64,000 bases of DNA, taken from the IMG/VR virus record IMGVR_UViG_3300045988_090087; one strand, 5' to 3'. This document shows positions 368 to 32,234 of the stretch, one piece after another. The notes below the pieces were generated by a model. The model did not search any database. It was given only the letters and a program-made list of their open reading frames with translations, and was not told where the DNA came from. Source of the stretch: a virus. The position numbers were made by a program, and so were the translations under genes. How positions within the stretch are numbered: position 1 is the stretch's first letter; each line of letters opens with the position of its first letter.

Positions 368-409
368 ATAGCCGAAGTTTCTCAAATGAGAAGCCTCGGC
401 TATTTTTTT
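368..409. terminator. Hairpin terminator between convergent genes
   Basis: ATAGCCGA (368-375) pairs with TCGGCTAT (396-403), followed by T7. It lies between the + gene ending at 356 and the - gene ending at 441. Confidence 0.55.
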
Positions 410-440
410 AAATTAATAAATATCCATCCCCAAATATTTA

Positions 441-599
441 TTAATAAGTAACAGATAATTCATTTAACTTATCACAAAAATCAAGAGTTAATTGATTATC
501 TTGTAAATCATTATCTCCTATAGTATCAATAATCTACTGTACTTCATTAAGTACTTTGTTCATTTTAGACTTTAAGTCTTTTAATTCTTTGTTAGTCAT
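441..599 (-). CDS. Small hypothetical protein (52 codons) with in-frame TAG at 534-536
   Basis: ATG 597-599 overlaps the upstream stop (TAATG). MTNKELKDLKSKMNKVLNEVQ-[TAG]-IIDTIGDNDLQDNQLTLDFCDKLNELSVTY-TAA. Confidence 0.4.
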
Positions 600-880
600 T
601 AATCAATTTTTATATAACCATTAACATCTAGATTATCATATATAGAAGTTATTGTATATCCTGTAATTGGATTTCTATAATGATATTTTTTAATTTCTAT
701 ATCTTCTTCTGAATTAGAATTTATATTTTGGTTGTCTTTAATCCATTGGTCTAAATCAGCTTCTGTTCCATTCTCTAATTGAAATAGAATCTTAGGTTCT
801 GATTTTAATCGTTTTAATTTTTTAGTAAGATTAGTTGTTTTTAAAATCTTACCATTTAATTCATAAATTGCTGCTATCAT
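599..880 (-). CDS. Hypothetical protein
   Basis: ORF track 599..892. The first ATG is at 878-880 (MIAAIYELNG...), 1 nt after the tRNA 3' end. Confidence 0.5.
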   Translation of the reverse strand: MIAAIYELNGKILKTTNLTKKLKRLKSEPKILFQLENGTEADLDQWIKDNQNINSNSEEDIEIKKYHYRNPITGYTITSIYDNLDVNGYIKID

Positions 881-6792: not shown

Positions 6793-7092
6793 ATGTTAAC
6801 AGGTCGATCAAGTCTCTTGCAGGTACATCAATTGTATCTGCGAGAGATAAAAAGTAAAGAACACTTACATTGGCGTAAACAAGTCATTAAAACACATAAT
6901 ATGGCTGTAGCCAATCGTAAATCTCATAATTATGCAGTCCAACTCTTGGTAAAAGCTACTAATATTCCATATTCAGTAGAATTAGCTAAGTTGATGAATC
7001 TTATAATTAATGGGAAATTTACACAACGAAAAATGTATTATGTATCTATTGATACTGCAATATTTAAACTTATAAATAATTTAACTATTTAA
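6793..7092 (+). CDS. Hypothetical protein
   Basis: ORF track. Confidence 0.45.
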   Translation: MLTGRSSLLQVHQLYLREIKSKEHLHWRKQVIKTHNMAVANRKSHNYAVQLLVKATNIPYSVELAKLMNLIINGKFTQRKMYYVSIDTAIFKLINNLTI

Positions 7093-7097
7093 ATAAA

Positions 7098-7562
7098 ATG
7101 AAAAAATACAACATTTGGAATAAAATTTTCCATAAAAGGGAATTAAACAAGAATGTTGCGGATTATAAACTTCAACAAGGTCTTGTTAATAGCTATGAGT
7201 GTTGGCTTACTAAAATTGGTAATGCTAACACTCTAGCTGAGTGTATGATACTCCATAAAAGAATTTGGCGTAAAGGGTTTCGTAATGCTAATCTTGGTCC
7301 AGATAAATATGGAATGTTTAGAACTAAAGATATAAACCTTATGACAATAAATGAGGTTTATATTGGAGGAATCTATGGTCTTAATACTCGAACTATCGCA
7401 CAATGGGAAGATCGTAAAGAAGAACCATATGATTCTACACAGACATGCTATGACATTGTCTTATGTGCGTATAAAAGATTGTTAAAATCTAACATTATAG
7501 CACTTGCAGATAATGCTAAGTTATTAGTAGCAGAGTACCAACAAAATAATTATAAGTTATGA
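7098..7562 (+). CDS. Hypothetical protein
   Basis: ORF track; tiles with neighbours. Confidence 0.6.
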   Translation: MKKYNIWNKIFHKRELNKNVADYKLQQGLVNSYECWLTKIGNANTLAECMILHKRIWRKGFRNANLGPDKYGMFRTKDINLMTINEVYIGGIYGLNTRTIAQWEDRKEEPYDSTQTCYDIVLCAYKRLLKSNIIALADNAKLLVAEYQQNNYKL

Positions 7563-9733: not shown

Positions 9734-10129
9734 ATGGAATTATTATTTAATGTTAAACAGAAAAATGTTGTGGCTAAGATTGGTGAAGATTACTTCTTTC
9801 TTAGCAAGAAACCAAAGAAACTAGAGTTTGCTGATTCAGTGCATAAGACTTTAGTCTTAAAGCATTTTAAAGCTCTGAAACCAACTATTGAAGAACATTC
9901 AGTTATTGATGAGTCATTAACTGTAGATGAGTGGAAAGATTTTCCAGTATGGTTAGAGAATGAATCTAATGGCGCTGAAGGAAATCTTGAGATTACTAAA
10001 TTTACTTATGGTAATATTAAACTGTATGTAAATGGTGGATGCCTTTGTGGAAATGTTCCAGAATATGCTTTAAAAGGCATCATTAAATTGTTCAAACAAT
10101 TTAAAACGAAAGAAAATGCAGACAATTAA
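9734..10129 (+). CDS. Hypothetical protein
   Basis: ORF track. Confidence 0.6.
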   Translation: MELLFNVKQKNVVAKIGEDYFFLSKKPKKLEFADSVHKTLVLKHFKALKPTIEEHSVIDESLTVDEWKDFPVWLENESNGAEGNLEITKFTYGNIKLYVNGGCLCGNVPEYALKGIIKLFKQFKTKENADN

Positions 10130-10631
10130 GAAAGTAAAGTACAGCATTGAGAGAGTTGGTAACAGTACGTTTTGTACTATGTCTTGTGATTTAGAGTACA
10201 TAATGGATTACTTAGAAGGAGCTAATATAAAAGTTTCAAGTGCTGATACTTCTGTATTCCTTAAAATTGCGACTTCTAAAGAAAGAAAGATTTTCATTAA
10301 AAACCTTGCTTCTTGGGGACTTACTATTGATAATTCTACTGTAACAGTCGTTTCTAAAATTACTTTAAGTAAAAATGATAAGGACGACCAGGTAGTAGCT
10401 AATCGAATTGTAAGAGATAAAGCTATGCATACTATGTGTAAAGTTATTGCAAATGCTTTAAATCAGGCTTTGGATTCTACTTATAATAGATTAGCTAAAG
10501 TAAACAATATTATTAATAAGTTAGAGCACATTGCTTATCATTCAAAATATAATGAGGATGATACAACATGTGATATTGAAGATTATCCAGATCCAGGAGA
10601 TAATGATGTGGATATTGCAGACATACTATAA
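10116..10631 (+). CDS. Hypothetical protein with acidic C-terminus
   Basis: ORF track. Confidence 0.6.
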   Translation: MQTIKKVKYSIERVGNSTFCTMSCDLEYIMDYLEGANIKVSSADTSVFLKIATSKERKIFIKNLASWGLTIDNSTVTVVSKITLSKNDKDDQVVANRIVRDKAMHTMCKVIANALNQALDSTYNRLAKVNNIINKLEHIAYHSKYNEDDTTCDIEDYPDPGDNDVDIADIL

Positions 10632-10800
10632 AATTGTCTTTGTATTGTATTAAAGTTTAAAATTTGCAAAATATGATGATTTAAACTATAAAATTTGAAA
10701 TTAACAAATTTTTACTTTTACAATGGATATTTGAAACTATAGTAGAGTGTTGTTGAGAAACAATGCTCTATATGCTATTAACTTTATAAAAATTATAATT

Positions 10801-11155: not shown

Positions 11156-11236
11156 ACGGAGTTAGCTTAATGGCTAAAGCACCTCATTTTCACAATTCAT
11201 AGAGAGGTTATATTGGTTCGAATCCTTTACTCCGTA
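11156..11236 (+). tRNA. tRNA-like gene with about 7 extra nt next to the anticodon loop (TTTTCAC, Glu-type loop)
   Basis: Acceptor ACGGAGT/ACTCCGT; D arm GCTT-AATGGCTA-AAGC. The central region CCTCA-TTTTCAC-AATTCAT-AGAGG is too long, and the T stem has U-U mismatches. Confidence 0.45.
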
Positions 11237-11259
11237 CTAACATTAAAAGATTGAGTAAT

Positions 11260-11610
11260 ATGAAAAAGATTATTTTATTAATGAGTTTTATTGTATTAAC
11301 TACAATAGCTCATGCGTTTAATTATGGTTCTATCACTGTTTATCAAGATGGTGAATGGAGTGATCCATTTTACATTAAAACTTCAGTAGTATATAATGAA
11401 GCTAGAAAAACTATTACTTTTAGCAATAGTAAGTTTGGTAAAATGGTATTAAAAATATACTCTTCTGAAATGAAGGATGGAGTAGAAATCCATAACTGTG
11501 GAGAGGTTAATACAGGAAGACGCTTTGTTGTCTTTATTACAGTAAGAAATAAAATTCCTTACGTAACTCTTAGTACTTCCGCAGATACCATGTTTTCATT
11601 TGGCTTTTAA
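11260..11610 (+). CDS. Secreted small protein (signal peptide)
   Basis: MKKIILLMSFIVLTTIAHA-FNYG...; embedded in the tRNA cluster. Confidence 0.6.
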   Translation: MKKIILLMSFIVLTTIAHAFNYGSITVYQDGEWSDPFYIKTSVVYNEARKTITFSNSKFGKMVLKIYSSEMKDGVEIHNCGEVNTGRRFVVFITVRNKIPYVTLSTSADTMFSFGF

Positions 11611-11856: not shown

Positions 11857-11926
11857 GGAGATATAGCTCAGAAGGTTAGAGCGCGGTGAAAATCCCGAGA
11901 TTGTGGTTCGATTCCACGTATCTCTA
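11857..11926 (+). tRNA. tRNA-like gene, 70 nt, shortened anticodon stem; loop contains GAA (Phe-type)
   Basis: Acceptor GGAGATA/TATCTCT; D arm GCTC-AGAAGGTTA-GAGC; T arm TGTGG-TTCGATT-CCACG. Only CGG/CCG pairs around TGAAAAT. Confidence 0.4.
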
Positions 11927-11971
11927 CTATATACAAGAATAAAATTCTATGCAAAATAAGATTATAAATTA

Positions 11972-12045
11972 GCTCTCTAAGCTTTAAGGTGAAGCACGAA
12001 ACTTTTAATTTCGGGAAGACAGGTCAGTACTGTCAGGGAGCACCA
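11972..12045 (+). tRNA. tRNA-Lys (TTT), CCA encoded, unusual T loop
   Basis: Acceptor GCTCTCT/AGGGAGC; CGAAA-CTTTTAA-TTTCG; T arm GACAG-GTCAGTA-CTGTC; 3' ACCA. Confidence 0.75.
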
Positions 12046-12120: not shown

Positions 12121-12192
12121 GGCACTATCGTCTAGCTGGTTAGGACGTAACTTTTCAAAGTTAAAAGGCGATTTCGAGCATCGCTAGTGCTA
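12121..12192 (+). tRNA. tRNA-Glu-like (TTC) with irregular anticodon arm
   Basis: Glu-type D arm TCGTCTAGCTGGTTAGGAC. The anticodon arm is TAAC-TTTTCAAA-GTTA (4 bp with an 8-nt loop, or 5 bp with a 6-nt loop). T arm GCGAT-TTCGAGC-ATCGC. Confidence 0.6.
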
Positions 12193-12271
12193 CTCTTCCG
12201 TATTTAAAAAACTAATACGATTAATGTTTAAAATATAAAGTCAGCGGACTTTATAACGTTAAAGAGTTGTT

Positions 12272-14434: not shown

Positions 14435-14506
14435 AAATGTGTAGCTCAATAGCTAGAGCGTCTATCGTAGAGTAGAAGGTTGGCAGTTCAAATCTGTCCG
14501 CATTTC
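14435..14506 (+). tRNA. tRNA-like gene, anticodon undetermined (irregular anticodon arm)
   Basis: Acceptor AAATGTG/CGCATTT; D arm GCTC-AATAGCTA-GAGC; T arm GGCAG-TTCAAAT-CTGTC. The central part folds only as TCTA-TCGTAGAG-TAGA. Confidence 0.5.
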
Positions 14507-14548
14507 CTTTTTCTATCATTATTTTAATTTTTAATTTATTAAAAATAA

Positions 14549-27497: not shown

Positions 27498-27578
27498 ATG
27501 GGTAATGAAGATAGAATAGATCCAGATGATTGGTACGATATGGGTTTTCCATATAGCCGAAGAATCAGAAGATATTAA
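27498..27578 (+). CDS. Tiny ORF (26 aa)
   Basis: Hand-translated; followed by the terminator hairpin at 27579-27602. Confidence 0.25.
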   Translation: MGNEDRIDPDDWYDMGFPYSRRIRRY

Positions 27579-27602
27579 AGAGTTCTAAATTAGAACTCTT
27601 TT
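27579..27602 (+). terminator. Hairpin terminator
   Basis: AGAGTTCTA-AAT-TAGAACTCT followed by TTT. Confidence 0.5.
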
Positions 27603-27608
27603 AAGTAT

Positions 27609-27940
27609 GGGGCTAAACTAGTATTTGATTGTCTAGGAGATAAAAAACACAGCAAGACAGTTGGAGAGACAACAAAACAATAATCGCTAGAGTTATCAAT
27701 ATGACTTCTGTTTCTTACGCTATTGCAGCCTAAGAAACCGAGCAGCACTTGCTTAGGAACAGAAAGGTGCACTATTTTCCATTTCTTATAAGTTCTCTGT
27801 ATACTTTAGGAACAGAGTGGTGGAAGTTGGCAATGTTAATCTTGTCAACCCTAACAGACAAGGATAGTCTTTAAAACCTATGCTGTAAGAACGTTTTGAT
27901 GCAAATAGGCAAGACGACGGGGCAGTACCGTCTAGCTCCA
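27609..27940 (+). ncRNA. ssrA: tmRNA-like gene (ssrA-type), tag reading frame ...SVSYAIAA-TAA
   Basis: 5' GGGGCTA pairs with 3' TAGCTCC, giving G3-U70 and discriminator A. A T arm GACGG-GGCAGTA-CCGTC is directly adjacent. An internal start-less frame GCT..GCAGCC-TAA (27686-27733) begins about 78 nt from the 5' end, and its stop lies in the CCTAAG..CTTAGG helix. Confidence 0.6.
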
Positions 27941-27977
27941 CTAGTTCATAGAACTGTTTTTATTATTATTTGTTTTT

Positions 27978-28013
27978 AATCCCTGGGCTATTATTATAGT
28001 TCAGGGATTTTTG
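27978..28013 (+). terminator. Rho-independent terminator after the tmRNA-like gene
   Basis: AATCCCTG..CAGGGATT followed by TTTT. Confidence 0.6.
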
Positions 28014-28033
28014 TTTAATTTTAACTGTTAATT

Positions 28034-28403: not shown

Positions 28404-29714
28404 AAAATTTAAGCAAATTCAGTAAGCTTAAATTTTTAAAAATTTTATATTTATTTGGATTTAATAAAATTTCATATATATTATAGTAATATTAATTTTA
28501 ACTATATGAATATGAAATTTGTAATTAATGAAGAATTAGGAGAAAAAATTAAGACTTTGTACTTAATAGATGGATTAAGTTGTACTAAGATTGGTAAAGA
28601 GGTTGGAATTTCTACTTCTACTATAAGTTCATTTCTAAAAAGAAATGGAATTGAAGTAGTTAATAAACAAAACAAATTATTATTTGATCTAGATAAAGAT
28701 ATTATTCCTAAATATAAGCAAGGGATAAGTTTATCTAAATTAGCTAAAGAGTATCATACTTCTATCCAAACTTTGTCTAGAAAATTAAAAGCTAAAGGGA
28801 TTGAAATAATCAATCATCAAAATGAAACTAAATTTAATGAGCATATCTTCGATGTTATAGATACTGAAGAAAAAGCTTATTGGTTAGGGTTTATATTTGC
28901 TGATGGTTATATTTCATCAAGAGATAACGGTTTTGAACTATCTTTAAAAGGCTCTGATATTGAACACTTACATAAATTTAATAAGTTTATGGAGCATAAT
29001 AAAGATAATGTCAAATTAGGGGAAGTTAAAAATAAAGATAAAACTTTTTTAAGGTGTCGCTGGGGAATAGTCAATAAGCACTTATGGAATACTCTAAATA
29101 ATTTAGGATGTACTCCAAGAAAAAGTTTAACTCTTCAATTTCCTAATATTTCTGAAGAATTAGAAATTCCTTTTATTAGAGGATACTTTGACGGTGATGG
29201 TTGTTTAAGTTACTATTAGAAGACAAAAATTTTACCAAAAGCTTCATTTTTAGGAACTAGACAATTTTTAGTAAAGATACAAGCAATATTAAATAATTTT
29301 AATATAAAAAGTTCTTTAGTAAAAGATACACGAATGGAAAATACTCTAGTATTAAATGTATCTTCAACAAATTCTTCAGATTTTTTAGACTTAGTATATA
29401 ATAATAGTTCCATTTATTTAGACAGAAAATATAAAAGATATAAAATTTTTAAAACTTGCCGTTCTAAACAGGAATGTTTAGAATTATTAGCGGGTGAAAA
29501 CGGGGAAGGCTGTGATGCTAATCCCGTGGTAAATGAAGATAGTAACGAATCTTCATCACTGTAACGCGTAGAAGTTGAAACTCTTATAAGAGAATATAAT
29601 ACTTCCAAGAGCGCCCGCTCTCCCAATCATTTGAATGGAGAAAAAGGTACGCTGAGCTATAACAAATAAGAAGTTATAGAAATATAGATAAAAAGCTATA
29701 TGATAACAATACTG
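28404..29714 (+). mobile_element. Group I-type intron (1311 nt) with a LAGLIDADG ORF, inserted in the Walker A codons
   Basis: The exon ends GGT (U) and the intron ends CTG (G). Joining restores GGT-AAA-ACA-GTT (G-K-T-V). The 3' ~120 nt is homologous to the helicase intron. Confidence 0.65.
28506..29564 (+). CDS. LAGLIDADG homing endonuclease with two N-terminal HTH modules; one in-frame TAG (29217-29219)
   Basis: YWLGFIFADGYI and IRGYFDGDGCL motifs. ORFs 28455..29219 and 29334..29564 share a frame that is open across the TAG, and the C-terminal part continues the LAGLIDADG fold pattern. Confidence 0.7.
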
Positions 29715-30602
29715 AAAACAGTTACCGCAAAGGAACTTTGTAATCGTTTACAGCTTCCTGTAATCTTAGTGCAATCAATGGGTGTTGATACTAATAGTAA
29801 ATTAATAAAATATTTATCTACATCTATTGATTTTGACTGTATCTTCTTCTTTGATGAATATGAGAAAGAATTTAAAAATTCTTCTGATGTTCTTTCTTTC
29901 ATGGATGGTACTTATAACTCTATTTATCGTAAGGTATTTTTACTTACTACTAATGAGTTAAATGTAGACCCAAATCTTCTTGGTAGACCTTCTAGAATAA
30001 GATATAAAAAGTCTTTCAGTAATCTTTCTGAGGAAGTTACTAGAGAGATTCTTAACGATATCTTGGAAGATAAAACTGCTATAGAAAAGGTTATAGAGTT
30101 AACTCATTCTATGAATATTATTACTATAGACTTAATTAAAGCTATAGCAACTGAAATTAATATTCATGGAGTAGAAGCTCTTCCTAATATTAAAGAAACC
30201 TTTAATATTGAATTCTCTAGATTTACTTATTTGTATAGAGAAGTACAAATCAGACATTGTGACTTGAAATTTACTCCTGAAAATATAAAGAATATATTAA
30301 AAGCTTTTTATAAGTTTAAAGAAATTAAAAAGAAAGATTGGGAGAAATATACTCAGGAAGAAATAAAATTCTATAACGAATGGTCTACTAAGTTCAATGA
30401 GGATTATGGTTCCACTACTGAGGATAAAGAGTTAAAATATCTGGAACCTGGAGATTATTTTGAGGATGATCGTATATTGATGGTAAGTATTAAAGAAAAA
30501 TATGTAGTAACTATGACTGATTATGGGAATATTAGAATATATATAATTAATAGTTGCTATTCTACAAGTAAAGCTACAGGTCTTGTAAATTACGAATTAT
30601 AA
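29715..30602 (+). CDS. AAA+ ATPase, exon 2
   Basis: KTVTAKELCNRL...; Walker B CIFFFDEYE; LLTTN; GRPSRI arginine. Confidence 0.7.
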   Translation, partial: KTVTAKELCNRLQLPVILVQSMGVDTNSKLIKYLSTSIDFDCIFFFDEYEKEFKNSSDVLSFMDGTYNSIYRKVFLLTTNELNVDPNLLGRPSRIRYKKSFSNLSEEVTREILNDILEDKTAIEKVIELTHSMNIITIDLIKAIATEINIHGVEALPNIKETFNIEFSRFTYLYREVQIRHCDLKFTPENIKNILKAFYKFKEIKKKDWEKYTQEEIKFYNEWSTKFNEDYGSTTEDKELKYLEPGDYFEDDRILMVSIKEKYVVTMTDYGNIRIYIINSCYSTSKATGLVNYEL

Positions 30603-30680: not shown

Positions 30681-32234
30681 ATGGAACATTTAGTTCTTAT
30701 TGGTGTTATCGCAGTCGTTATTATTGTACTGCTTGTTATTATTGCTACAATGTATGTTAAAGCTCCTCCTTCGATGGCGTACATTCTTTCAGGTTTTCGT
30801 AAGGAGCCACGAGTACTTATCGGTGGTGGTGGAGTAAAAATTCCTGTACTTGAACGATTAGATAAAGTATATCTTGGTCAAGTAACAGTTGATGTTAAGA
30901 CTTCACAACCAGTTCCTACTCATGATTTCTTGGATGTAATGGTAGATGCCGTATGTAAAGTTAGGGTAAAACCTGATACAGAAGGCACTAGACTTGCAGC
31001 TAAGAACTTCTTGAATATGAATTCTGTGCAGATTGCTGCTCAGGTGAAAGATTCTTTGGAGGGTAATATGCGTGAAGTAGTAGGTTCTCTTGACTTAATT
31101 AAGATTAACACTGATAGAGATGCATTCTCTGATGAAATTCAGAAGAAAGCAGCTCCTGATATGGCTAAGTTAGGTCTTGAGATTTTGTCTTGCAATATTC
31201 AGAATATTACTGATGAGAAAGGCTTGATCCGTGATTTGGGAGCTGATAATACAGCAGCTATTCAGAAAAATGCTAAGATTACTCGTGCTAATGCTGATAG
31301 AGACGTAGCTAAGGCTCAAGCTGAGGCTGACAATGAAGCTAATGAAGCACGAGTAAAGGCTGACACCATTATTGCTGAACGTAATAATGAATTAGCTATT
31401 AAGAAAGCTGAACTGAAGAGATTATCTGATATTAAGAAGGCTGAATCTGATGCTGCGTATAAGATTCAGCAGCAGGAGCAGCAGAAAACTATTAATATCA
31501 AGACTGTAGATGCTGATATTGAGAAGACTCGTAAAGAACAGACCTTGTCTGAGGAGAAGATTAAAATTAAGCAGAATGAGTATCTTGCAGATGTAAATGC
31601 TAAGGCTGATGCTGATAAGTATCAGACAGAGATTGATGCTCAGGCTGCTCTGGAGAAGCAGAAGCGTGAGGCTGAGGCTGAAGCTTATAAGGCAGAGCAA
31701 ACTGCTAAGGCTATAAAAGCTAAGGCTGAAGCTAGTCGTTATTCTCAAGAGCAGGAAGCAGCAGGTATTCGTGCTAAGGGTGAAGCTGAAGCATATGCTA
31801 CTCAGCAGACTTTGACTGCTGAAGCTGAAGGTACTAAGGCTAAACTTTTGGCAGAAGCTGAAGGTGTGAAGGCTAAGGGTCTTGCAGAAGCTGAGGCTAT
31901 GCAGAAGAAGGCTGAAGCATACAGTAAATATGGCTCTATTGCTGTAATTGACATGCTTTCTAAACTTAATGAGAAAGTTCTTCCTGATATGGCTAAGTAT
32001 ATTGCTGAGCCTATGAGTAAGATTGGCAATATGACAGTTTATGGAACTAATGGTTCTGAGGCTTCTGGTATTTCTGGTAATGTGCCTGCTATTATTAAGC
32101 AAACCCGTGACATTGTAAAAGATGCCACAGGTGTAGATATGGCAGACATTATGAAGGCTAACACCATTGATGCTAAGGTTAACAAGAATGTTAACGTTAA
32201 TGGCGACGTAGAAAACACCAATGTAAATGTATAA
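30681..32234 (+). CDS. SPFH/flotillin-like membrane protein
   Basis: An N-terminal TM segment, an SPFH core (GGGVKIPVLERLDKVYLGQVTVDV...), then a long A/E/K-rich coiled coil. Confidence 0.75.
   Translation: MEHLVLIGVIAVVIIVLLVIIATMYVKAPPSMAYILSGFRKEPRVLIGGGGVKIPVLERLDKVYLGQVTVDVKTSQPVPTHDFLDVMVDAVCKVRVKPDTEGTRLAAKNFLNMNSVQIAAQVKDSLEGNMREVVGSLDLIKINTDRDAFSDEIQKKAAPDMAKLGLEILSCNIQNITDEKGLIRDLGADNTAAIQKNAKITRANADRDVAKAQAEADNEANEARVKADTIIAERNNELAIKKAELKRLSDIKKAESDAAYKIQQQEQQKTINIKTVDADIEKTRKEQTLSEEKIKIKQNEYLADVNAKADADKYQTEIDAQAALEKQKREAEAEAYKAEQTAKAIKAKAEASRYSQEQEAAGIRAKGEAEAYATQQTLTAEAEGTKAKLLAEAEGVKAKGLAEAEAMQKKAEAYSKYGSIAVIDMLSKLNEKVLPDMAKYIAEPMSKIGNMTVYGTNGSEASGISGNVPAIIKQTRDIVKDATGVDMADIMKANTIDAKVNKNVNVNGDVENTNVNV

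Follow-up and report, generated by a model that had tools for sequence, protein, structure and literature searches.

Huge phages carry genes for tmRNA and SmpB (Al-Shayeb et al. 2020, PMC7162821), and mycobacteriophage tmRNAs have entries in the tmRNA database (PMC11915505). A tmRNA gene interrupted by a group I intron at position 3 of the T loop has been reported so far from the class Bacteroidia only (PMC11915505). Trans-translation is also connected with the reading of stop codons: suppressor read-through loads tmRNA, according to the passage of PMC3985003 that cites Ueda 2002, and an unassigned UAG has the same effect (PMC6207430). Finally, non-canonical elbows are known from tRNA-Pyl and from many mitochondrial tRNAs (review PMC7609411). 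In the literature we found no report of a tmRNA from a Lak-type phage or of a tmRNA with a non-T-psi-C loop, and no description in phage tRNAs of the odd class of T loops that we present below.

The window, as we call the whole stretch of 64,000 nucleotides analyzed here, comes from a virus (IMG/VR record IMGVR_UViG_3300045988_090087) described as gut megaphage-like. A preliminary description, made from the letters alone, had identified a one-piece tmRNA gene at positions 27609-27940 of the plus strand, and this identification, together with the ends, resume codon, tag and odd T loop predicted in it, is supported by our analysis. We put at roughly 80% the probability of the fuller reading, in which this one-piece tmRNA (ssrA) is functional and belongs to a gut phage that recodes TAG and is related to Lak, its function being predicted from sequence comparison. 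The element has a GC content of 40%, against 30% for the window; it recurs, conserved and covarying, in 35 further viral contigs. No promoter was identified for the gene. Its predicted parts, its flanks and two other genes of the window that bear on the argument are the following:

11972-12045, plus strand: tRNA-Lys(UUU) whose gene includes the CCA, with the non-canonical T arm GACAG-GUCAGUA-CUGUC and a variable loop of 4 nt
27577-27601, plus strand: hairpin AAAGAGTTCTAAATTAGAACTCTTT, separated by 7 nt from the mature 5' end downstream and conserved in relatives, with changes that G-U pairing tolerates
27609-27615, plus strand: acceptor 5' strand GGGGCUA, holding the G3 of the G3:U70 alanine identity pair
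27616-27628, plus strand: D-loop analogue AACUAGUAUUUGA, with 'AG' where canonical copies have 'GG'
27629-27635, plus strand: 5' strand of helix P2a, UUGUCUA (from RNAalifold)
27644-27658, plus strand: 5' strands of helices P2b (AAAAC), P2c (ACAGCA) and P2d (AGAC)
27660-27673, plus strand: small hairpin G-UUG GAGAGA CAA-C, at the position of pseudoknot PK1
27674-27685, plus strand: A-rich single-stranded region AAAACAAUAAUC, upstream of the resume codon
27686-27730, plus strand: tag reading frame GCT AGA ... GCA GCC, with resume codon GCU, encoding ARVINMTSVSYAIAA
27731-27733, plus strand: tag stop codon TAA
27729-27757, plus strand: P5-like stop-codon helix, either CCUAAG/CUUAGG or CCGAGCA/UGCUU-GG, with a common 3' strand
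27753-27817, plus strand: body region with both UUAGGAACAGA(A/G) copies and a long imperfect hairpin between them
27826-27849, plus strand: hairpin GUUGGCA...UGUCAAC of 7 bp
27867-27912, plus strand: 3' strands of P2d (GUCU), P2c (UGCUGU), P2b (GUUUU) and P2a (UAGGCAA)
27916-27932, plus strand: T arm, with 5 bp in the stem GACGG/CCGUC and GGCAGUA as its non-canonical loop of 7 nt
27933-27943, plus strand: acceptor 3' strand UAGCUCC (27933-27939), discriminator A (27940) and trailer CUA
27978-28016, plus strand: intrinsic-terminator-like hairpin of 14 pairs followed by the T run TTTTGTTT, conserved in relatives
28455-29564, plus strand: HTH and LAGLIDADG-like ORF that contains TAG in frame (29217-29219)

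The sequence features that the preliminary description had read in the letters are all there, where it had placed them: a 7-bp acceptor GGGGCTA/TAGCTCC with G3:U70 and discriminator A, the arm GACGG-GGCAGTA-CCGTC placed directly against it, CCTAAG (27729-27734) and CTTAGG (27752-27757) around the stop codon, and a tRNA-Lys(UUU) whose loop, GTCAGTA, resembles that of the element. It was also right that no CCA is encoded, the discriminator being followed by CTA, and CCA must therefore come after 3' processing; in relatives the trailer is CCA, CCG, CTA, CTT or CTG. Two statements stood in part. The 12-mer TTAGGAACAGA(A/G) occurs twice (27753-27764 and 27806-27817), but the covariation scan gave no support to its being typical of pseudoknot regions; the region corresponds to the pseudoknot-rich part of tmRNA, and its variable loop, at about 27775-27790, tolerates an expansion of some 130 nt in one relative (L104). 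The element had also been called bounded by terminators. The downstream one is strong, but the upstream hairpin is flagged by the terminator scan on the minus strand only, the plus strand offering four T after the stem, and it may be either the terminator of an upstream small ORF or part of a pre-tmRNA leader.

Standard tools recognize canonical-loop copies of this gene and miss odd-loop ones such as the window copy, ARAGORN calling 11/11 of the former and 0/8 of the latter. For the window copy it returns nothing at default or at thresholds down to 80% of default, and at 70% it wrongly calls a permuted gene. Rfam, at gathering and at permissive thresholds alike, gives no RF00023 match for this copy, which fails every Rfam tmRNA model; sub-threshold fragments are all that appears, with 20.7 bits as the best tmRNA-family score where the gathering score is 47. 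Sister copies reach 48.9-65.1 bits with RF00023, above that gathering score (48.9 for L001 and L002, 63.1 for L094 and 65.1 for L104). In these copies ARAGORN reports a tmRNA with the tag ARVINMTPVSYAIAA starting at nt 77-78, that is ARVINMT[S/P]VSYAIAA, and so recovers the start-less frame from element nt 78, the resume codon and the tag that had been predicted for the window. The preliminary description had itself named a sub-threshold score under the tmRNA covariance models as evidence against its reading and, taken literally, this is what the window copy yields; the two tools fail on it because its T loop is non-canonical. The only GenBank record that holds the gene, MT835492.1, leaves the tmRNA unannotated.

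Support for the structure comes from the relatives. The body of the window copy is 95.6-95.9% identical to those of L001 and L002 over 292-294 nt (element nt 16-307), and 15 or more related viral contigs join a body about 96% identical over 292 nt to a canonical tRNA-like domain. The 36 loci provide 25 unique copies, all of which (25/25) pair in the acceptor, helix P2 and T arm and keep G3:U70. There are three acceptor versions, each paired 7/7, with covariation at acceptor pairs 5-7 (2, 2 and 3 pair types). Compensated changes affect 5/7 pairs of P2a among the 25 sequences and 4/5 pairs of the T stem across versions of the tRNA-like domain, no pair being broken in either helix; P2b has one compensated pair (A-U to G-C), and P2c and P2d show no change or one-sided changes only. 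Each of the 7/7 combinations of tRNA-like domain and P2a retains a full acceptor (7/7), P2a (7/7) and T stem (5/5). Compensation is seen at 10 pairs in total, with a covariation score of 0.279 versus 0.113. Pairing holds in 900/900 cells; shuffles give 90.8% (0/500) and slid controls 35-43%. RNAalifold, unaided, recovers P2a, P2b, P2c and the T arm, and the MFE and centroid folds both contain the acceptor and T arm (z = -1.9). Two alternative pairings, that of the P2a 5' strand with AGACAG or AGACAA inside the element and that of CCUAU with AUAGG, were dropped because covariation was seen for the P2a pairing only.

Body diversity is low, with a mean column identity of 87%, and the covariation stems in large part from a small number of recombining haplotypes, not from many independent events. 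The hairpin at 27826-27849 pairs in 25/25 copies, two positions varying on one side (G-U to A-U and U-A to U-G), and the stop-codon helix shows one-sided changes only (A to G, giving G-U). An unbiased covariation scan for helices in the low-variation body detected no supported pseudoknot and nothing above noise. In the Rfam alignment PK1 takes up 6 nt against 26 in the model, the remainder aligning poorly: PK1 is strongly reduced relative to host tmRNA, to a small hairpin, and two single-nt insertions in type-C copies add pairs to its stem (A-C-UUG...CAA-G-U). A blastn comparison with Lak-A, -B and -C gave no detectable homologue of the tmRNA gene.

What distinguishes the window allele is its elbow. 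Nearly every tmRNA has U54, U55 and A58 in its T loop, and TrmA and TruB make use of these nucleotides. All three are absent from the window T loop, which reads GGCAGUA instead of UUCRANY, and the D-loop analogue co-varies, the allele lacking both the consensus T-psi-C loop and the GG of the D-loop analogue. Sibling T loops are UUCGACU, UUCAACU or UUCGAAU, each accompanied by GG. The odd-loop domain is invariant in 14/36 loci, on 8-9 different bodies and with all tag types, and its two halves, 300 nt apart, have changed coordinately, including one compensated P2a pair.

The same elbow is found in at least 29 phage tRNAs, for Lys, His, Glu, Thr and Gln and including one CUA suppressor. The class is defined by a T loop G-K-C-R-G-U-A on a 5-bp stem, in which position 55 (U/G) tracks D-loop position 18 (G/A). 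Covariation between D loop and T loop amounts to 16/0 vs 1/12 in 29 unique cloverleaf tRNAs, and scrambled-loop controls gave 0 in each of six. The tmRNA fits this rule, having GGCAGUA together with CUAGUA, and its T-arm 17-mer is identical to that found in tRNAs of unrelated phages. Matches to the T-arm pattern are mostly tRNAs, some of them otherwise perfect cloverleaves within tRNA clusters; one match, in a Campylobacter phage, is not a tRNA. Gene finders largely overlook these molecules: ARAGORN finds 2/21 of the odd-elbow tRNAs tested (at least 29 are known), one lies unannotated in a cultured cyanophage genome, and the tRNA-Lys of the window is missed by ARAGORN and by Rfam tRNA at E<0.01. 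Direct gene conversion from this tRNA-Lys is an unlikely source of the tmRNA elbow, the two T arms differing at 3/17 positions. Because at least 29 phage tRNAs share the alternative elbow, sequence comparison makes a working design, rather than decay, the most likely explanation.

In two sibling loci, L115 and L098, the T loop is interrupted between nt 2 and 3 (UU|CGACU) by a group I intron (RF00028, 85.9 and 87.3 bits). The sequence of L115 includes the 3' exon, and excising its 867-nt intron restores a canonical tmRNA. The ORF of the intron is encoded on the other strand and belongs to no clear family. No intron interrupts the window gene. A tie between the odd domain and the downstream LAGLIDADG gene was considered and rejected, since the canonical copies of L001 and L002 precede the same gene.

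It is unlikely that decay or loss of activity has made the window allele a relic, into which recombination or gene conversion brought an incompatible domain while the canonical siblings work. Such an origin would agree with a T loop off the tmRNA and tRNA consensus, with the failure of both detectors and with a recombination hotspot at this locus, where tRNA-like domain, P2a and tag are combined as a mosaic; the T-loop introns of L098 and L115 and the adjacent LAGLIDADG gene speak in the same direction. Decay, however, is hard to reconcile with an odd domain that stays identical on so many bodies with its helices intact and G3:U70 kept, that accompanies tag frames as intact as those on the canonical domain, that changed in both halves together, and whose elbow obeys the D-loop/T-loop rule of the odd-elbow tRNAs.

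A further proposal concerns what a working elbow would be for. The GKCRGUA loop might be a distinct phage-borne elbow, invisible to gene finders, that makes translation RNAs independent of, or invisible to, an elbow-reading host factor; we advance this tentatively, as a possibility with the odds against it. Candidate factors are a tRNA-directed defence nuclease, T-loop modification enzymes, and T-loop-homing group I introns with their endonucleases. The elbow would then serve the tRNAs most attacked or most dependent on modification, namely those for Lys, Glu, Gln and His, along with Thr and the amber suppressor, and phages of the window's lineage would have grafted it onto tmRNA. If this were true, phage tRNA and tmRNA repertoires would be systematically under-counted, and the tRNA elbow would be a new axis of phage-host conflict.

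The tag region behaves as a reading frame. Indels within it are of 3 nt, those of 1-2 nt lying elsewhere in the relatives, and the five tag variants are all in frame, end in ...AIAA or ...AAA and stop at TAA or TGA, never at TAG. Its ancestry appears to be bacterial. In type-C copies, 18 nt of the resume region and the A-rich region AAAAAAUUAAUU match the Segatella copri tmRNA letter for letter, and the tag, GEVNNTS(A/V)SYAIAA, resembles the host GENNYALAA; there is also local similarity to Prevotella/Segatella tmRNA (E = 8e-5). On account of the 18 identical nucleotides, the family looks as if it had been captured from a Bacteroidota host.

A tmRNA-derived RNA could also be directed against the host, displacing the host tmRNA to spare phage proteins stalled at UAG, or adding a tag with a different fate. 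Precedents exist: host tmRNA tagging blocks phage propagation in E. coli with unassigned UAG (PMC6207430), and a tmRNA-like RNA of phage DS6A, once expressed in E. coli, inhibits the endogenous tmRNA, according to PMC11915505. Moreover, the phage tags are 5-7 residues longer than GENNYALAA and differ in their middle part. We consider this role quite unlikely, as the tag frame, its stop and its C-terminal ...Y-A-I-A-A or ...A-A-A are conserved. This end resembles the host degron YALAA and therefore points to ordinary proteolysis tagging. No sequence feature separates a competitor from a helper.

The preliminary description had placed the gene next to a stop-codon recoding system, and its neighbour does read TAG as sense. 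In the ORF at 28455-29564 the match to LAGLIDADG_3 rises from 25.4 to 42.8 bits and spans the in-frame TAG, which must be a sense codon, and this shows that the phage recodes TAG. A link between the tmRNA and recoding in this phage is plausible in the light of the read-through work cited above. There is next to no chance that the element is itself a TAG-recoded protein gene running from the ATG at 27607 to a TAA at about 27882 (some 92 codons, five TAG among them): such a frame is open in the window when TAG is an amino acid, as it indeed is in this phage, but comparative data refute it, the other 24 unique copies stopping after 5-76 codons (15 of them after 5), relatives having 1- and 2-nt indels outside the tag, and substitutions preserving RNA helices, not codons.

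SmpB was found neither in the window nor in 1.5 Mb of related loci, which are fragmentary contigs; of the viral SmpB loci, which number at least 455, the best 80 include none on a tmRNA-bearing contig. SmpB is encoded by 15/15 Lak records and by other huge phages; in the 40 kb around the SmpB gene of Lak-B5 ARAGORN finds no tmRNA. Host SmpB is presumably available. The tmRNA could act as follows. RNase P would cut the 5' end out of a longer transcript, the 3' end would be trimmed and CCA then added. The host AlaRS would charge the tmRNA with alanine through G3:U70, and the tmRNA would enter stalled ribosomes with EF-Tu and SmpB, the latter host-encoded or phage-encoded elsewhere in the genome. 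Translation would restart at the GCU at 27686, appending (A)ARVINMTSVSYAIAA, until UAA ended it, releasing the ribosome and leaving a product marked for proteolysis. In the window allele, the canonical T-psi-C/GG elbow would have been swapped for the G-G-C-A-G-U-A loop and A-G D-analogue. The phage probably gains from a tmRNA of its own because infection and TAG suppression raise the numbers of non-stop and stalled ribosomes.

What is new here is the odd T loop of the window allele with its co-varying D-loop analogue, common to a set of largely undetected phage tRNAs. Since programs that search for tmRNA and tRNA genes rely on the T-psi-C loop, inventories of phage translation RNAs are under-counted. 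The locus also offers a natural experiment, the same tmRNA body existing with a canonical or a non-canonical elbow, and the allele pair can serve to ask which features of the tRNA-like domain are needed by SmpB, EF-Tu, AlaRS, RNase P, TruB and TrmA. A ribosome-rescue RNA in a phage that reads TAG as sense makes the interplay of recoding, read-through and trans-translation testable in a natural system.

Among known systems, Bacteroidota ssrA shares with the phage gene a 7-bp acceptor, G3:U70, A73, an abutting T arm, the P2 helix, an A-rich stretch and a start-less tag frame with the end Y-A-(L/I)-A-A. The phage gene is shorter (about 332 nt, against about 397 nt in Segatella copri and Prevotella), its similarity outside the resume region is local only, and its tag has 14-15 residues where the host tag GENNYALAA has 9; in addition, the window allele has the T loop GGCAGUA, no GG in the D-analogue and no encoded CCA. 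As with the tmRNAs of huge phages, the gene sits in a large genome rich in tRNAs and translation genes, but those tmRNAs, like the mycobacteriophage ones, are found by ARAGORN, which is blind to the window allele. The intron-form tmRNA genes of Bacteroidia have their intron at the same site as the siblings L115 and L098, whereas the window T loop, GG|CAGUA, does not have at position -1 the U that such introns use. Compared with the elbows of tRNA-Pyl and mitochondrial tRNAs, finally, the odd-elbow class keeps C56, purine 57 and G19 and has G/G, not U/A, at 54/58; its position 55 (U or G) tracks 18 (G or A), its variable loop is always of 4 nt, a feature with no counterpart in the tmRNA, and its carriers are phage tRNAs and a tmRNA.

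The interval 27609-27940 is a real tmRNA gene, as the preliminary description had held, and is of a known kind, since phage tmRNAs, introns in the T loop and mosaic tmRNAs have all been described. The novelty lies in an allele of the tmRNA in which the near-universal T-psi-C/GG elbow is swapped for an alternative one. Inspection of the sequence bore out the Ala-type acceptor with its G3-U70 pair and discriminator A, the T stem directly adjacent to it, the start-less frame about 78 nt in, the helix-forming segments proposed around the stop codon and the lack of an encoded CCA. The duplicated segments are also there, but the pseudoknot role suggested for them gains nothing convincing from a covariation scan; of the two bounding terminators claimed, the 3' one is strong, while the 5' side is a hairpin.

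Features in the window
Ends of 27609-27940, plus strand: acceptor, 7 bp, GGGGCUA/UAGCUCC, with G3:U70
27940-27943, plus strand: discriminator A, then CUA (not CCA)
Abutting the acceptor, plus strand: T arm GACGG-GGCAGUA-CCGUC
From element nucleotide 78 (counted from 27609), plus strand: tag frame without start codon, encoding ARVINMTSVSYAIAA-UAA
Either side of the tag stop codon, plus strand: CCUAAG (CCTAAG) and CUUAGG (CTTAGG)
Twice within the element, plus strand: UUAGGAACAGA(A/G)
27577-27601: hairpin 5' of the element
27978-28016, plus strand: strong terminator 3' of the element
28455-29219, read-through to TAA 29562-29564, plus strand: HTH and LAGLIDADG-like ORF (Pfam), 515 nt downstream of the tmRNA
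11972-12045, plus strand: tRNA-Lys(UUU), T arm GACAG-GUCAGUA-CUGUC, with the same odd elbow

The element has a GC content of 40%, against 30% for the window, and its acceptor and T arm form in both the MFE and the centroid fold (z = -1.9). A-CTA stands in place of A-CCA after several tRNA genes and the tmRNA (11926-11929, 11236-11239, 27940-27943), where some relatives have CCA or CCG; such ends suggest a common 3' processing context and reliance on CCA addition.

The preliminary description proposed ARAGORN and the Infernal tmRNA models as checks, and these standard tools miss the window copy. ARAGORN called 12 tRNAs in the window and no tmRNA, and Rfam at gathering thresholds gave no match to this copy. 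With thresholds cut to 70%, ARAGORN reported a mis-bounded 'permuted' tmRNA with the same tag, and a permissive Rfam search of a 650-nt interval produced two matches only, tmRNA_permuted at 20.7 bits over the tag region (gathering score 47) and beta_tmRNA at 12.9 bits. The preliminary description had said that covariance scores below threshold would speak against a tmRNA, and on the window copy alone, with both tools failing, that is where the matter would stand.

It is the relatives, whose near-identical bodies are called tmRNA by ARAGORN and RF00023, that establish the identity of the gene. The nearest record to the window is the unannotated MT835492.1 (97.9% identical); Lak-A, -B and -C give short matches at 78-87%, and by sequence the window phage is related to the Lak megaphages of Prevotella. 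Probing IMG/VR with the exact 24-nt 3' end (13 contigs) and a 25-nt body segment (34 contigs) gave 25 unique full-length copies, among which indels are of 1 or 2 nt outside the tag and of 3 nt only within it. Two viral contigs, L001 and L002, share 95.6-95.9% with the window over element nucleotides 16-307, and differ in the tRNA-like domain: acceptor GGGGCAU/AUGCUCC, D-loop counterpart UCGUGGUUUUGA, T arm UGGAG-UUCGACU-CUCCA, and, in the P2a segment of helix P2, a C-G pair replaced by A-U through compensation. Here ARAGORN calls a tmRNA whose tag, ARVINMTPVSYAIAA*, spans nt 77-124, and L001 scores 48.9 bits on RF00023 (E = 2.7e-18). Another canonical version of the domain (GGGGAUG/CAUCUCC with AGGGG-UUCGACU-CCCCU) reaches 63.1 bits. 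A fourth canonical T arm, GAGGG-UUCGAAU-CCCUC, occurs in contig L104 (tmRNA 6897-7359, minus strand; 65.1 bits), where the body's most variable loop has given way to a ~130-nt expansion. Over the unique copies, ARAGORN called 11/11 with a canonical loop and 0/8 with GGCAGUA, so that the failure of the detectors is due to the T loop and not to a different gene identity.

The structure itself is conserved through compensatory change. The tRNA-like domain and P2a occur in seven combinations, and in each of them the acceptor (7/7), P2a (7/7) and the T stem (5/5) are paired; G3:U70 is present in 25/25 unique copies, and acceptor pairs 5, 6 and 7 show 2, 2 and 3 pair types. Unguided RNAalifold predicted P2a (both sides changed in 5/7 pairs), P2b (one A-U to G-C), P2c, a ring-closing helix AGAC/GUCU and the T arm (both sides changed in 4/5 pairs), with no broken pairs in these helices. 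For 36 pairs in 7 helices, 900/900 cells were paired, against 90.8% in shuffles (0/500 reach the observed value) and 35-43% in slid controls; the covariation score was 0.279 (shuffles, 0.113; slid controls, no more than 0.075). When every pair of columns was scanned without bias, P2a and the T arm came out at the top and nothing convincing emerged in the pseudoknot region, where the Rfam alignment is poor and PK1 is down from 26 to 6 nt. In copies with the type-C tag (GEVNNTS-series), two single-nucleotide insertions add base pairs to a small hairpin 5' of the tag.

Lak phages recode TAG. If TAG counts as a sense codon, a frame of ~92 codons that starts with ATG and contains five TAG spans the element in the window, as a protein gene in a recoded code would have it. 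This opening is unique to the window, the other copies stopping after 5-76 codons (after 5 in 15 of the 25 copies), so the frame is open by chance.

The odd elbow of this tmRNA is not confined to it. As the preliminary description noted, the T loop resembles that of the phage's own tRNA-Lys, which is called by neither ARAGORN nor Rfam. A degenerate 17-mer spanning both T arms matched 74 IMG/VR stretches, nearly all tRNAs, from many unrelated environments, with T loop G-K-C-R-G-U-A (G54/G58). Strict re-parsing left 29 unique cloverleaves (Lys UUU 13, His GUG 5, Thr 5, Glu 4, Gln 1, CUA suppressor 1), all 29 with a 4-nt variable loop; Gly GCC and more His tRNAs with G-1/C73 were added by eye. 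GUCAGUA goes with GG in the D loop in 16/16, and GGCAGUA with A/C-G instead in 12/13 (position 55 against D loop, Fisher p = 2.5e-7, a statistic that ignores relatedness); by eye, His tRNAs of L156 and L169 (the latter misread by the strict parse) are exceptions, combining GUCAGUA with AAAG. A search of 1.54 Mb of viral DNA allowing any 5-bp stem found 19 odd-loop cloverleaves, some with other stems, and none in each of six scrambled-loop controls. ARAGORN called 2/21 odd-elbow tRNAs.

Odd-elbow tRNAs in viral sequences
Window 11972-12045 (plus strand), and contigs L119, L121-L126, L129-L135, L139, L141, L143-L147, L151-L153, L156-L162, L164-L170, L173, L175, L176: carriers
L388 ~1498-1570, PP438436.1 ~123229-123300: tRNA-Lys(UUU) of Leptolyngbya phage Lbo-JY46, missed by ARAGORN

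The Lbo-JY46 gene, unannotated in this cultured cyanophage, has T loop GUCGGUA and lies beside an annotated tRNA cluster, immediately 5' of annotated tRNA-Cys genes. An apparent amber-suppressor tRNA in L125 (IMGVR_UViG_3300035517_000267, minus strand, T-arm match 11530-11546) has the anticodon CUA in a CUCUAAA loop; its T arm is GACGG-GUCAGUA-CCGUC, and its CCA is encoded. Two further window tRNAs (12121-12193 and 14435-14507, plus strand; Rfam tRNA scores of 43.7 and 48 bits) have anticodon stem-loops allowing 6-nt or 8-nt loops only (UUUCAA, CGUAGA) and two-base 'anticodons' in ARAGORN; they may be suppressor, quadruplet or defective.

The window tmRNA fits the same D/T rule, pairing GGCAGUA with CUAGUA where canonical siblings pair UUCGACU with GG, and the odd tRNA-like domain is unvarying over 14/36 loci and 8-9 distinct bodies. 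As read from these sequences, the odd elbow is most likely design and not decay; that it is an adaptive, phage-specific architecture we consider possible but rather unlikely. We found no description of this tRNA class in the literature. The alternative tmRNA elbow is invisible to standard tools and common to a hidden class of phage tRNAs.

The proposed stop-codon recoding nearby was confirmed in the downstream ORF. TAG 29217-29219 is the exact truncation point of its Pfam match, and with read-through the LAGLIDADG_3 score goes up from 25.4 to 42.8 bits, the match then crossing the TAG; the window phage therefore reads TAG as sense. Further downstream lie an AAA ATPase-like gene (29700-30602) and an SPFH/Band 7 and flotillin-domain gene (30681-32234), unusual phage cargo; both are on the plus strand. 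In published work, tmRNA deals with the non-stop complexes that arise when suppressor tRNAs cause read-through (Ueda 2002, cited in PMC3985003), and with unassigned UAG, tmRNA rescue and tagging limits phage propagation (PMC6207430).

The mechanism is most likely ordinary trans-translation. The precursor would be processed by RNase P and at its 3' end, receive CCA, be alanylated by way of G3:U70 and enter the ribosome with SmpB and EF-Tu; translation would restart at GCU 27686, a 15-residue degron-like tag following the charged alanine, and terminate at UAA. The phage gene would add rescue capacity during infection and recoding. Both tmRNA and SmpB are known in huge phages (PMC7162821), and we found SmpB encoded in 15/15 Lak records, all of them unannotated, as well as in several phages of 630-735 kb; the Lak homologues have 34-38% identity to E. 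coli SmpB.

Lak SmpB genes
L297 19968-20444 (Lak-B5, MK250024.1 112422-112898)
Lak-A1, MK250015.1 ~507067-507498

The SmpB gene of Lak-B5 is followed, 6-16 kb downstream, by a cluster of 18 tRNAs. ARAGORN finds no tmRNA in the surrounding 40 kb; any tmRNA of Lak would therefore be elsewhere or non-canonical too. SmpB was not found in the window or in 1.5 Mb of related loci, nor, among the best 80 of at least 455 viral SmpB loci, on the tmRNA-bearing contigs, which are fragments.

The tmRNA locus is a hotspot for mobile elements. From contig to contig, the versions of the tRNA-like domain, P2a, tag and flanks appear in shuffled combinations, and in two copies a group I intron interrupts the T loop, between nucleotides 2 and 3 (UU|CGACU).

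T-loop group I introns (RF00028)
L115 9877-10743: 867 nt, 85.9 bits; excision gives back a canonical tmRNA
L098, Rfam match 397-648, minus strand: 87.3 bits

On the strand opposite to the L115 intron, an ORF (10044-10673, 209 aa) matches no clear family and has a weak zinc-finger match only. Five tags occur across the 25 copies, ARVINMT(S/P)VSYAIAA, ARVINMTPAYQAAA and GEVNNTS(A/V)SYAIAA, with a sixth, ARVINMTPATAVAIAA, in the interrupted L098; every type is seen with odd as well as canonical T loops, and the stops are TAA or TGA, never TAG.

Reported tmRNA T-loop introns use four subsites, of which position 3, where the phage introns also sit, is described only from class Bacteroidia (PMC11915505, a 2025 tmRNA database paper). 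A back-translated GE[N/T]NYALAA* pattern has matches in at least 120 Bacteroidota genomes, and the tmRNAs of Prevotella, Segatella and Bacteroides, of ~397 nt, carry GENNYALAA or GETNYALAA. Similarity of the phage RNA to these tmRNAs is local only. Since Segatella copri and the type-C phage copies are identical over 18 nt at the resume codon (AAAAAAUUAAUU|GGCGAA), and the tag of the phage RNA can be read as GE..NN..YA(I/L)AA in expanded form, the phage family looks like a Bacteroidota tmRNA that was captured, shortened and diversified with its host-type resume context kept.
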